A DNA stretch of 64,000 bases from Escherichia coli (GTDB lineage Bacteria; Pseudomonadota; Gammaproteobacteria; Enterobacterales; Enterobacteriaceae), in NCBI RefSeq assembly GCF_022846255.1, contig NZ_AP025682.1, one strand, 5' to 3'. Shown piece by piece: positions 8,912-64,000 of this stretch. How positions within the stretch are numbered: position 1 is the stretch's first letter; the number at the start of each line of letters is the position of its first letter. The notes below the pieces were generated by a model. It saw only the letters and a list, made by a program, of their open reading frames with translations, did not search any database and was not told the origin of the DNA. The position numbers and the translations under genes are program-made.

Positions 8912-8927
8912 TGTGTTACACATCACA
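8912..8927. promoter_or_regulatory. CRP-like binding site upstream of psuK
   Basis: TGTGTtacacaTCACA, matching TGTGA-N6-TCACA in 9 of 10 half-site positions, about 210 nt upstream of the psuK ATG. Confidence 0.45.
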
Positions 8928-9138
8928 ACTTTCTCTTTTGTTGCTGCATAAATAGACAAATTTTGTGACCGCCTTCATATCTGGCCGATTTCGTTTTTTC
9001 TGATCGATTTACATTACGTTAAACATGCTTATTATGAACATGTGTTTAAATCTGAACACGTGCTCTAATAGTCTTATTGACTGTAATGACTATTTTACCC
9101 AATTTCTTCGTTGGCAATTTATTGCCAGGGGGCGTGCT

Positions 9139-12416: not shown

Positions 12417-13076
12417 TTACTGCATCATCCCGGAGAATTTATTCTCCGGGTCCATCTCCAGCGCCAGTCCTGACAACTGCTTTCTGTTTTTAATGAGATA
12501 CCCTTTCTTGCTTTTAATTAATAAACCGTCATTAATGAATTGCGCAAGAACATATAAAAGATGTCGATAAGAAACGCCTAAATACTCTGCCGCTTGCGTA
12601 TGCTTTTCGTGATAAAGATCACCTTCCTGCGAGAGTAATATAAAAGCTGCCAGGCGATTCACTAACGGAAATGATTGATTCTGAGTTAAAGAAACAATAT
12701 TACGATAATTTTTATGACTTAAGGTGACGCAGAGTTTTCGTAAAAATAGCGTGTCGTTTAATAACAACGGGCGGTAATGCTTCATAGGGAGCGCAAGACA
12801 CCAACACTCTTCAATAGCCTGCACTGCACGCGGTTCATGGTCTTTGTCGATTAACTCAATCTCGCCAATAAAACAGGGCGCGGCAAAGAAATCGATCAGC
12901 GACACGCGACCATTAGCAAGCGTGACGTAAAGCCTGGCGCGGCCTCGCGTCAGGTAAAACAGCCAGGACGGCTGTTGCCCTTCCTGCACAATGTAGTCAC
13001 GCGCTAAAAAATGAAACAGCCGCGTATCGGCTGAAACATCCGTTGAAAAGCAATCCTTAAACGCAGATTCACTCAT
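12417..13076 (-). CDS. yeiL: Crp/Fnr-family transcriptional regulator
   Basis: Track ORF trimmed to [14 protein letters not shown]... (219 aa); cNMP-binding-like fold region and C-terminal HTH ([16 protein letters not shown]). Confidence 0.85.
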
Positions 13077-13244
13077 CAATTGCTGCTTAAGATCATTATT
13101 GTGGATTTCTTTCACGATGTTTATCCGCTATGAGATTTCTCATATTTAGCATACGTACGCTGTTGTTAAGATTCAATCATCGGCCAGGTCGAATTTTCTT
13201 TGCTGTAGAAACAATAACGCAACTGGAAACAGAGGAAATAAACA

Positions 13245-16683: not shown

Positions 16684-17541
16684 TCAGGCCACCGCTTTTT
16701 CAGTTTGTTGCGCTTTCAGCCAGGCGATCTCTTCTGCCCAGATATCCGGGTTGATGGTTTCAAGGATCAGCGGAATGCCGTCGAAACGGTCGTCCTGCAT
16801 GATCCAGCGGAACGCATCATGACCGATATTGCCTTCACCGAGGCTATGATGGCGGTCAACGCGGCTGCCAAAGGTGCTTTTCGCATCGTTAAGGTGCATC
16901 CCGCGCAGATACTTAAAGCCGACAATACGGGCAAAATCCGCGAACGTTTTCTCGCATTCGGCAGAAGTACGCAAATCATACCCGGCAGCGAAAGCATGGC
17001 AGGTATCAATGCAGACGCCGACGCGGGATTTATCTTCCACGCCGTCGATAATCGCCGCGAGATGTTCGAATTTAAACCCTAAGTTACTGCCCTGACCGGC
17101 GGTGTTTTCAATCACCGCTGTCACACCTTGAGTTTTATCCAGCGCAATGTTGATGGATTCGGCAATACGCGCAAGGCAATCCTCTTCTGAAATCTGCATC
17201 AGATGGCTGCCAGGGTGGAAGTTGAGCAAAGAAAGCCCCAGCTGTTCGCAACGCTGCATTTCATCTATAAACGCATCGCGCGATTTTTCCAGAGCTTCAG
17301 CGACCGGATGTCCGAGGTTAATCAGATAACTGTCGTGGGGAAGAATTTGCGCCGATGTGTAGTGATATTTTTCACAGGCGGCTTTGAATTCATCGATGGT
17401 TTGCGTCGTGAGCGGTGCGGCACGCCACTGACGTTGGTTTTTGGTGAACAAGGCAAACGCGGTTGCGTCGATTTCGGCGGCGCGAATTGCGGCATTTGCC
17501 AGACCGCCAGCAGCACTAACGTGCGCTCCAATGTATTTCAT
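16684..17541 (-). CDS. nfo: Endonuclease IV (AP endonuclease)
   Basis: 285-aa [16 protein letters not shown]... TIM-barrel AP endonuclease, recognised sequence. Confidence 0.95.
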
Positions 17542-26600: not shown

Positions 26601-26635
26601 CTGTAACCGTTTCCATTGCTGTGACTCGATTCACG
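26601..26635. promoter_or_regulatory. galS promoter elements: GalR/GalS operator-like site plus CRP-like site
   Basis: CTGTAACCGTTTCCAT (operator-like, 26601-26616) and TGTGActcgatTCACG (CRP-like, 26620-26635) about 80-110 nt upstream of galS. Confidence 0.55.
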
Positions 26636-27752: not shown

Positions 27753-27780
27753 CCGCTTTCAATCTGTGAGTGATTTCACA
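27747..27780. promoter_or_regulatory. mglBAC regulatory region: GalR/GalS operator-like site adjacent to a perfect CRP site
   Basis: ATGTAACCGCTTTCAAT (27747-27763) followed by TGTGAgtgattTCACA (27765-27780). Confidence 0.6.
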
Positions 27781-31695: not shown

Positions 31696-31877
31696 TGTAG
31701 GCCGGATAAGGCGTTCACGCCGCATCCGGCGACAGGAGCCAAATGCCGGATGCAACGCTGGCGCGTTTTATCCGGCCTACAATGAGCTCAACATACTGAT
31801 TTGTATGGTTTTGTAGGCCGGATAAGGCGTTCAAGCCGCATCCGGCGACAGGAACTAAATGCCGGATGCGTCGCTGG
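31696..31877. repeat. BIME cluster: about four REP units in alternating orientation (two tandem ~115-bp units)
   Basis: Repeated TGTAGGCCGGATAAGGCGTTCA(C/A)GCCGCATCCGGCGACAGGA and inverted GCCGGATGC...CCGGCCTACA copies. Confidence 0.85.
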
Positions 31878-31879
31878 TT

Positions 31880-33115
31880 TTACAACGTTACCGGGTGTTC
31901 TTTCTCGCCTTTCTTAAACTTCACTTCCCCAAGATCAATACAACCTACCGGGCAGACATGACCACAAAGCAGACAACCCACGCATTTCTCGGTATTACAA
32001 TGCGGTGTGCGGGTTTTCTCGCTCCATTCCATCGCCTGGTGACCGCCGTCGTAACAGGAAATATAACAGCGTCCACAGCCAACACATTTATCAAGATTGA
32101 TATGGGGATAGACAATATAACTGCGGTCTAAATCTTCCGCCGGGACAATATTGTGATTCGCCAGACCCACCATCTCCTGCAACGAATCAAACCCTTGATC
32201 GGCGAGATAATGCGACAACCCGCTTGCCATATCTTCCACTATCCGATACCCGTACTGCATAATGCCGGTGGTCACCTGCAACGTTGCTGCGCCGAGCAAT
32301 AAAAACTCCGCCGCATCTTCCCAGGTTTCAATGCCGCCGATACCGCTGATCGGGAAATCGTGCAGTTCTGGATGGGTGCGCATTTGCTGAATAAAGCGTA
32401 GGGCGATCGGTTTTACCGCTTTACCGGAATATCCGGAAATACTCGATTTACCGTTAACGATCGGCATACCAATTTTCTGATTAAGATCGATATTGGTGAT
32501 GGATTTAACGGTGTTAATCGCCGCAATGCCATCTGCGCCGCCGCGCTTCGCCGCCAGCGCCACTTCGCACATATCACCAATATTCGGCGTCATCTTCGCC
32601 AGCATTGGCAGCGTGGAACCACGTTTTACTGCCCGACAATATTTTTCTACCAGCTCCGGGCTTTGCCCGACATCGCTACCCATCGCATGAGAAGTCATTT
32701 GCGGACAGGAGAAGTTACACTCGATCATATCCGCGCCAGCTTCTTGCACCAGACGCGCCAGCTCTTCCCATTGCTGCTCATTTTCGCCCATGATTGAAGC
32801 GATCAATACTTTGTCCGGATAATCTTCTTTCAGCCGACGCAGGGCGGCCAGATTCTCTTCCAACGGATGTTCAGCAATCTGCTCCATATTTTTGAAGCCG
32901 ATAAAACCGGTATCTTCTTTCACCAGATGATCAAAACGCGGCGAGACTTCGTTGGCGATAAAAAAACCGATCGTTTTAAACACCACGCCGCCCCAACCTG
33001 TGTCGTAGGCTTTGGCACACATCTCATAGCAGTTGCCTACCGGTGAAGAAGAAAGGCAGAACGGGTTAGGAAACTTCACGCCGCAAAAGGTAATCGAAAG
33101 ATCTTTCGTTAACAT
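31880..33115 (-). CDS. preA: NAD-dependent dihydropyrimidine dehydrogenase subunit PreA (DHOD-like TIM barrel with C-terminal 4Fe-4S ferredoxin)
   Basis: 411 aa from ATG 33115; C-terminal CxxCxxCxxxCP motifs; overlaps the preT stop. Confidence 0.9.
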
Positions 33116-34347
33116 GAGCAAGCTCCCTCTAAATAGTGATGAATCGCCTCGGCGGCTTCTTTCCCGGTTTTCACTGCATAGACCACGGTTTTGTCACCCT
33201 CAACAATATCGCCAGCAGCAAAGACTTGCGGGTCGCGGGTCTGGTAATTTTGCGTTTCGATGGTGTTACGCTGCGGCTCTAACTCCGCAAAGGCATCCAG
33301 TCTGGCATGCTGACCGATGGCGAGAATAATTTTATCTGCCGCCATCGTCAGTTCGCCCGGTAACCGTACATGCTTAAACGTGACTTTATTGCCTTCCACG
33401 GCTACTGGTGTAAATCCATCGATGATCGAAACGCCCAGCTCTCTGGCGCTGGTAAACTCTTTTTCGCTTGCCGGAAACTCATCTAACTCTTCACGCGCTA
33501 CGCAGGTTACCGCCTGACAGCCGAGAACTTTCAGCGTGCTGGCTACGTCCATCGCGACATCACCGCCGCCGATAATTAATGCACTTTGTGGAATGCTGAT
33601 ATCGCCTTGCGCCTGTCGTGCACGTTGCAGGAAGTCTACGGCAATCTCAACGTCGCTATGCTCAAACAGCGATAACCCGGAACCGCTCGATAACCCTACG
33701 GTGACCAGTACCGCGCGGTTTTCCGCTTTCAGCTGCTCCAGGGTGAGTGTTTTACCGATTTCGTTATTGCACTTAATGGTCACGCCCATTTTTTCTATAC
33801 GGGCGATTTCTGCATCCAGCACCGATTGCGGTAACCGGAATTGCGGAATGCCGTTACGCAACCAGCCACCGGGTTGTGCTTCTTTCTCATAGATCGTGAC
33901 GTCATAACCCTGGTTTGTCAGCGTCACACTGGCCTGCAATCCGGCAGGACCTGCGCCAATAATGGCGACTTTGCCGAGCGTTTTAGTACCGGGCAGATAA
34001 ATTTCCATCCCAGTTTGTTGTTCAAAATCAGTAACAAAACGCTGTAAGCGACCGATATCAATGGGAGCATCAACACCGGCACGTGTACAACCGCTTTGGC
34101 ATAATTTCTCCGTCGGGCACACTCTGGCACAAACGGCACCGAGGGCATTATTTTCGCGAATTGTCTCGGCAGCGCCTTTAAAATTACGAAAGTAGATTGA
34201 GCGAATAAATTTCCCCGGATCGGTCTGTGCCGGGCAAGCCTGACTACAGGGAGCGTCATGACATAATAAACAGCGAGAGGCTTCTTTAATCGCCAGTAAA
34301 GGCGTAAAAGCCGGAGTGAGTTCATCCAGATAATTTTGTTGCGGCAT
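33109..34347 (-). CDS. preT: NAD-dependent dihydropyrimidine dehydrogenase subunit PreT (GltD-like)
   Basis: 412-aa ORF with N-terminal Fe-S cysteines and an FAD/NAD Rossmann motif GAGPAG. Confidence 0.9.
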
Positions 34348-34439
34348 GTGATCTTCCTTAATGCTATGAGTAATTAAGGCGAACGCTAAATAAATATTGC
34401 GTGCTGATATTAAGGCTATGCGCGTGGGGAAATTTAAAC

Positions 34440-34455
34440 TGTGAAAGGATTCACA
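34440..34455. promoter_or_regulatory. Consensus CRP site upstream of preT-preA
   Basis: TGTGAaaggatTCACA, perfect half-sites, centred about 100 nt upstream of the preT ATG. Confidence 0.55.
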
Positions 34456-34540
34456 AATAGCTGCGGTTCAGAATGTGATATCCGCAGCTTATTGAGTGAA
34501 GTAATAATTATTCTCAATAATTAACAGAAAAGGGAAAATA

Positions 34541-36536
<1,996 letters not shown>

Positions 36537-36595: not shown

Positions 36596-36641
36596 TGTGA
36601 TCTGAATCTCATTAATTATGCAACGCGTGAAACTTACATCA
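36596..36641. promoter_or_regulatory. Tandem CRP-like sites in the cdd promoter (CRP/CytR-type architecture)
   Basis: TGTGAtctgaaTCTCA (36596-36611) and CGTGAaacttaCATCA (36626-36641), 60-105 nt upstream of cdd. Confidence 0.55.
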
Positions 36642-36665
36642 AAAATGCGCGACGCATCGCAAATT

Positions 36666-43355: not shown

Positions 43356-43528
43356 AAAGTTCTTTTGCGCTGCATTGCTGGCGTAAATGTCAGCAATGCA
43401 GCATTTCCTCACGATTCTTCTTTGACGATCGCACTTTTTGCTCGTTATGATGGCGTCGCTAGCCTCAGTAAATCCTTACTCCGGCGGTGCGCAACCCGTG
43501 CGCGTGAACCACTATCTGAATGCTCATC

Positions 43529-63745: not shown

Positions 63746-63861
63746 ATATTCATCCCTGAAATGTATTAATGAAATAAACGATATTTTACGCGCAATAAAT
63801 GTTTGCCGCATTAGTTGTTTGAGCGAAAAATATCTGGAAAGCAGATCACAGTAAATAAAAA

Positions 63862-63892
63862 AACCTGCTGGTGAGGCAGGTTCTTTTATTTA
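63862..63892. terminator. Bidirectional rho-independent terminator upstream of yehL
   Basis: AACCTGC-tggtgag-GCAGGTT flanked by an A-run (5') and CTTTTATTT (3'). Confidence 0.7.
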
Positions 63893-64000
63893 CTATTTTC
63901 AGGCCTAACACCACAGCCTGTGCAACATCGTGTTCCAACGAACGAATTATAACCACGGCTGGACCCCGTTGCAATTAAGATAATGAGATTTATAATCCAG

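Follow-up and report, generated by a model that had tools for sequence, protein, structure and literature searches.

A perfect CRP palindrome upstream of the Escherichia coli preT-preA operon: conservation, probable promoter geometry, and a common leader polymorphism

The sequence considered here (the window) is a 64,000-nt stretch of an Escherichia coli chromosome, in reverse orientation relative to K-12. The minus-strand gene order around the locus of interest is cdd (35652-36536), sanA, yeiS (34541-34780), preT (33109-34347), and preA (31880..33115), with mglA and mglC on the plus strand. preT (yeiT), a 412-aa ORF annotated under that name in 5,4xx E. coli genomes, encodes an NAD-dependent dihydropyrimidine dehydrogenase subunit; preA (yeiA) comes second in the operon and overlaps the end of preT. 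A Shine-Dalgarno sequence for preT, AAGGAAG, is found at 34353..34359 (minus strand), within the conserved block CATTAAGGAAGA. PreTA is the dihydropyrimidine dehydrogenase of bacteria and, in the gut, inactivates 5-fluorouracil and metabolites of capecitabine (bioRxiv 10.1101/820084; PMC11185696); the conditions under which it is switched on are therefore of some pharmacological interest. Rfam matches in the window include the REP-derived nucleoid-associated RNA naRNA4, between mglC and the end of preA (31700-31777, plus strand); a Peptidase-S11 cis-regulatory RNA (43444-43524, plus strand) upstream of a 313-aa ORF, probably pbpG; and an OrzO-P type I antitoxin RNA (63857-63932, minus strand).

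Within the non-coding yeiS-preT spacer (34348-34540), positions 34440-34455 on the plus strand read TGTGAAAGGATTCACA, matching TGTGA-N6-TCACA at all 10 of the 10 specified positions. In the orientation of preT (minus strand) this 16-bp core is TGTGAATCCTTTCACA, and the full 22-bp CRP site (34437-34458, minus strand) is ATTTGTGAATCCTTTCACAGTT, or ATT-TGTGA-ATCCTT-TCACA-GTT when divided into flanks, half-sites, and spacer. Its center, at 34447.5, precedes the preT ATG by 100.5 nt. The original prediction of exact matches to both CRP half-sites, about 100 nt upstream of preT, is thus borne out on both counts.

The site was judged by its perfect consensus core and a shuffle test. The 64 kb contain two perfect TGTGA-N6-TCACA sequences, where dinucleotide shuffles predict 0.06 ± 0.24, and none of 100 such shuffles of the window contained two or more; the second is the documented mglB CRP site (27765-27780). 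The preT palindrome is not a chance occurrence. When one mismatch is allowed, there are seven matches in the window (1.65 expected), six of them intergenic. Four are RegulonDB CRP sites: those of galS (26620-26635), mglB (no mismatches), and preT, and CRP-1 of cdd (36596-36611). Two more are CRP-like boxes in the fruA-psuK spacer (8912-8927 and 8964-8979), and one, AGTGATATTTTTCACA, is a one-mismatch box inside the nfo coding sequence (17361-17376) that may be a chance match.

The orthologous site in K-12 is bound by cAMP-CRP in vitro, as found by genomic SELEX-chip (PMC3105977). In that study yeiT (= preT) is listed in Table 1A, among RegulonDB cAMP-CRP targets also recovered by genomic SELEX (Shimada et al., 2011, PMC3105977); Table S3 places a SELEX-chip peak at 2.23195 Mb in the spacer "yeiS> >yeiTA," with the box TGTGAAAAGATTCACA; and in the RegulonDB site list (Table S5) the yeiTA site appears as TGTGAATCTTTTCACA, with CRP as an activator at -57.5 (PMC3105977). 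By alignment, the K-12 and window sites are at the same position in orthologous spacers, 100-101 nt from the ATG of the same operon, with identical half-sites; they are distinguished by a single substitution in the non-contacted central spacer (TGTGAATCTTTTCACA versus TGTGAATCCTTTCACA), and by a 1-nt indel further downstream. RegulonDB already records the preT site as one at which cAMP-CRP activates, and the finding is correct and ordinary. The primary source of the RegulonDB yeiTA entry is probably Zheng et al. 2004. The catabolite control of preTA that had been proposed for this window is supported by the RegulonDB activator entry, the SELEX-chip peak, and cross-genus conservation. The accessible parts of the text and supplements of a Crp ChIP-exo paper do not mention yeiT or preT; two papers on preTA and 5-fluorouracil, which report higher preTA expression aerobically than anaerobically, contain nothing on CRP.

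Orthologous loci were collected by a PreT peptide motif scan of one-genome-per-species contigs. The matches listed include preT loci from five other species (E. albertii, Citrobacter werkmanii, Citrobacter sp. FP75, C. youngae, and a Pseudocitrobacter MAG) and leave out Salmonella, E. fergusonii, and Klebsiella. The conservation comparison was made among three E. coli sequences, two strains bearing the ERIC element described below, E. albertii, the three Citrobacter, and Pseudocitrobacter. Both CRP half-sites recur without change in E. albertii, Citrobacter sp. FP75, C. youngae, and Pseudocitrobacter, while flanks and spacer vary; the C. werkmanii locus is cut so that only the right half-site is visible. 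At every listed locus with enough upstream DNA a perfect TGTGA-N6-TCACA is found 108-121 nt before the ATG, with the exception of E. albertii, where an insertion lengthens the distance to 239 nt. The Pseudocitrobacter site has a different spacer (TGTGAATGGATTCACA) and is preceded by DNA that cannot be aligned with the end of yeiS, but its half-sites are intact. Three islands are conserved in the alignment: the CRP site, the sequence GC(A/T)TAGCCT, and the region of ribosome binding; the remainder drifts, with indels. Judged from these sequences, the CRP site is kept across three genera.

The second of these islands contains a candidate -10 hexamer, TAGCCT (TAnnnT; 34413..34418, minus strand), which follows the CRP core after exactly 21 nt. 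It matches TATAAT at only three of six positions. The combination of CRP core, 21 nt, and TAGCCT is present in eight of eight orthologous sequences. The same 21-nt spacing is found in this window at mglB (TATGAT), galS (CAAAAT), and cdd (TAAACT), for all of which RegulonDB puts CRP at -41.5/-42.5 (PMC3105977). Like preT, the class II promoters mglBp, galSp, and cddP (CRP-1) consist of a 16-bp core, 21 nt, and a TAnnnT or other -10 hexamer, with no recognizable -35. Their starts at -41.5/-42.5 are documented, whereas that of preT is predicted, and cdd differs further in having a distal CRP site and a CytR operator, both of which preT lacks. With class II geometry, transcription of preT would start at 34405..34406 (minus strand), giving a 5' UTR of ~58-59 nt. 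A consensus sigma-70 promoter scan found no -35/-10 pair on the preT strand, as expected if the promoter is activator-dependent, with CRP replacing the -35 element. Since the invariant TAGCCT is at the spacing seen for mglB, galS, and cdd, class II geometry looks likelier than the catalogued -57.5. We consider it somewhat more probable than the alternatives, on this comparative evidence, that the preT promoter is class II, transcribed from near 34406 with CRP at -41.5/-42.5. The catalogued center of -57.5 in K-12 is at odds with the class II geometry that conservation suggests, and may be imprecise or refer to a secondary start site.

CRP bound at the same site could instead be a class I-type activator, centered between -57.5 and -61.5 and working with TATTAT (in K-12) or CAATAT (in the window) as the -10 hexamer, with a start at 34391-34386. 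This agrees with the RegulonDB entry, whose -57.5 would put +1 at ~34391, and preT does resemble lac-type class I promoters (CRP at -61.5) in having a single CRP dimer upstream of a weak promoter. The K-12 hexamer TATTAT (5/6) is placed for -61.5; in the window, CAATAT (34394..34399, minus strand; CRP near -60.5/-61.5) or AATATT is one base closer. However, neither this hexamer nor its spacing is conserved across genera: it falls in the least conserved part of the spacer, where E. coli strains differ by a 1-nt indel, Citrobacter has insertions of 10-12 nt, and Pseudocitrobacter lacks a -10-like hexamer at the corresponding distance, whereas TAGCCT at the class II spacing is invariant. A center at -57.5 would moreover be off the standard helical phase, the canonical CRP positions being -61.5 and -41.5 (PMC5957442). 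Class I activation of preT is, in our estimation, rather unlikely to be the main arrangement, but dimers at -41.5 and -61.5 would be two helical turns apart, so the two geometries are compatible and may coexist. Published start sites do little to separate them: the sole start assigned to yeiT by Kim (2012) is a 2-read start at 2231827, inside yeiS, and is uninformative, and the accessible part of the Cappable-seq supplement has no start in the relevant preT coordinate ranges.

Pyrimidine and nucleoside genes are found nearby, and cdd, with classic tandem CRP sites, is 2 kb away; the preT site might therefore be imagined as belonging to a class III (CytR/CRP nucleoprotein) promoter like those of cdd and deoP2, with preTA in the CytR regulon. 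According to a CytR comparative-genomics paper, however, all CytR-repressed promoters except that of cytR use two CRP sites, and a search of the yeiS-preT spacer at up to three mismatches yielded one CRP-like site and no second, so that the tandem architecture needed by CytR is absent. The same paper lists the known regulon and includes neither preT/yeiT nor psuK/yeiC. CytR control of preTA is not supported, and we consider it very improbable. Marginally less probable again is that the palindrome has no CRP role, as a chance sequence or the site of some other CRP/FNR-family protein such as YeiL, a poorly characterized paralogue encoded among nucleoside genes at 12417-13115: such sites are expected by chance at 0.06 per window, this one is kept across genera, and CRP binds it in vitro by SELEX. 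The recognition helix of CRP has an R-E...R pattern, which the putative recognition helix of YeiL, SYRHLLYVL, does not share; with this dissimilarity, and no evidence found for YeiL, it was rejected as an alternative binder. A scan for RutR boxes found nothing at the preT promoter, and matches in general were at chance level.

The original prediction extended to a CRP/CytR-type nucleoside regulon spread across the window. This holds for cdd, which has a classic CytR/CRP promoter and is a documented CytR target; it does not hold for preT, with its one CRP site, and both preT and psuK are absent from the CytR comparative-genomics paper. Two CRP sites had been placed upstream of cdd, at 36596-36641. 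One is CRP-1 (36596-36611), but the other was misplaced: it fits poorly, with 3-4 mismatches, and falls in the CytR operator region between CRP-1 and the documented distal site, CRP-2 (TGCGATGCGTCGCGCA; 36646-36661). The CRP-like site proposed upstream of psuK (8912-8927; TGTGTTACACATCACA) stands, with one mismatch. CRP bound this spacer in K-12 SELEX-chip, in vitro only, as a peak designated "pscK< <fruA" with two boxes (Shimada, 2011, PMC3105977). The boxes in the window align with both of these, the second (8964-8979) being 52 bp downstream of the first as compared with 55 bp in K-12, and the TGTG...TCA cores are kept though the spacer is 75% identical between the strains. Tandem boxes of this kind resemble CytR-type promoters; no evidence of CytR action at psuK was found.

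Upstream of the preT CRP site is a Fur-box-like element, TGAGAATAATTATTA (34502..34516, minus strand), a 7-1-7 inverted repeat matching TGATAATNATTATCA at 13 of 15 positions. It is conserved across genera, at a center-to-center distance from the CRP site of 61.5 bp in Escherichia and 72.5 bp in Citrobacter and Pseudocitrobacter, an 11-bp difference that corresponds to one helical turn. A Fur ChIP-seq peak has been found at the preT promoter under anaerobiosis, and activation of both preTA and a preT-lacZ fusion depended on Fur (Beauchene et al., 2015, PMC4676285); we infer that TGAGAATAATTATTA is the site bound by Fur.

Between the Fur-box-like element and the CRP site, directly after yeiS and adjoining the CRP site, is a hairpin with an 8-bp stem, AGCTGCGG-N15-CCGCAGCT, followed by ATTTGTG (34459..34489, minus strand; z = -4.85 for folding of the region). 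It is probably the sanA-yeiS terminator, although it was not called by a consensus terminator scan; Citrobacter has a different hairpin in its place. In the preT leader, the blocks CGCCTTAAT and ATTAAGGAAG (34353-34385, minus strand) are conserved, and their pairing could occlude the Shine-Dalgarno sequence. A hairpin sequestering it (CCTTAAT/ATTAAGG) was considered and rejected, as its predicted fold is no better than those of shuffled sequences (z = 0.19).

Taken with the K-12 binding data, the preT site is very probably an operator for cAMP-CRP activation of preT-preA, most likely in a class II arrangement. In the mechanism we propose, cAMP-CRP at this operator would activate a sigma-70 promoter, inducing reductive pyrimidine catabolism, including the inactivation of 5-fluorouracil, once preferred carbon sources are absent. 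CRP, as a class II activator, would stand in for the missing -35 element and contact an RNA polymerase bound to the weak but invariant -10 hexamer TAGCCT (34418-34413), with transcription starting near 34406; Fur, at its putative site further upstream, would add an iron/oxygen input.

The leader is also the site of a common polymorphism. An insertion point between 34391 and 34392, CAATATTT|ATTTAGCG, is empty in the window and in K-12, while 2,192 of 5,426 complete E. coli genomes (about 40%) have an inserted element at this junction in the preT leader. The insert is 125 bp long, with a 203-bp version in some strains. It is an ERIC element, matching the ERIC2 primer at 22 of 22 positions and ERIC1R at 21 of 22; a diverged copy is present in E. 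albertii at roughly this position. The insertion point is downstream of both candidate -10 hexamers, and the element would therefore be transcribed as leader. The ERIC-bearing leader is predicted to be strongly folded (-63 kcal/mol, z = -5.6).

While CRP control of preTA was already in the databases, a probable class II geometry, conservation of the Fur box, and the common ERIC polymorphism add modestly to it. It is possible, though we suggest it tentatively, that the preTA architecture as catalogued is wrong or incomplete, and should be drawn with CRP at -41.5 acting in class II fashion on TAGCCT, a Fur site whose distance shifts by 11 bp, and an ERIC element in ~40% of leaders. If so, an ERIC element in the 5' UTR could change mRNA stability or translation, and the polymorphism could explain strain differences in preTA expression; these would amount to heritable strain-to-strain differences, in the gut, in expression of an operon that inactivates 5-fluorouracil.

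A different rearrangement is seen in E. coli EP91B, in which an IS1 adjoins the end of yeiS: the preT promoter is gone from about the CRP site onward, and preT itself is truncated and annotated as a pseudogene.
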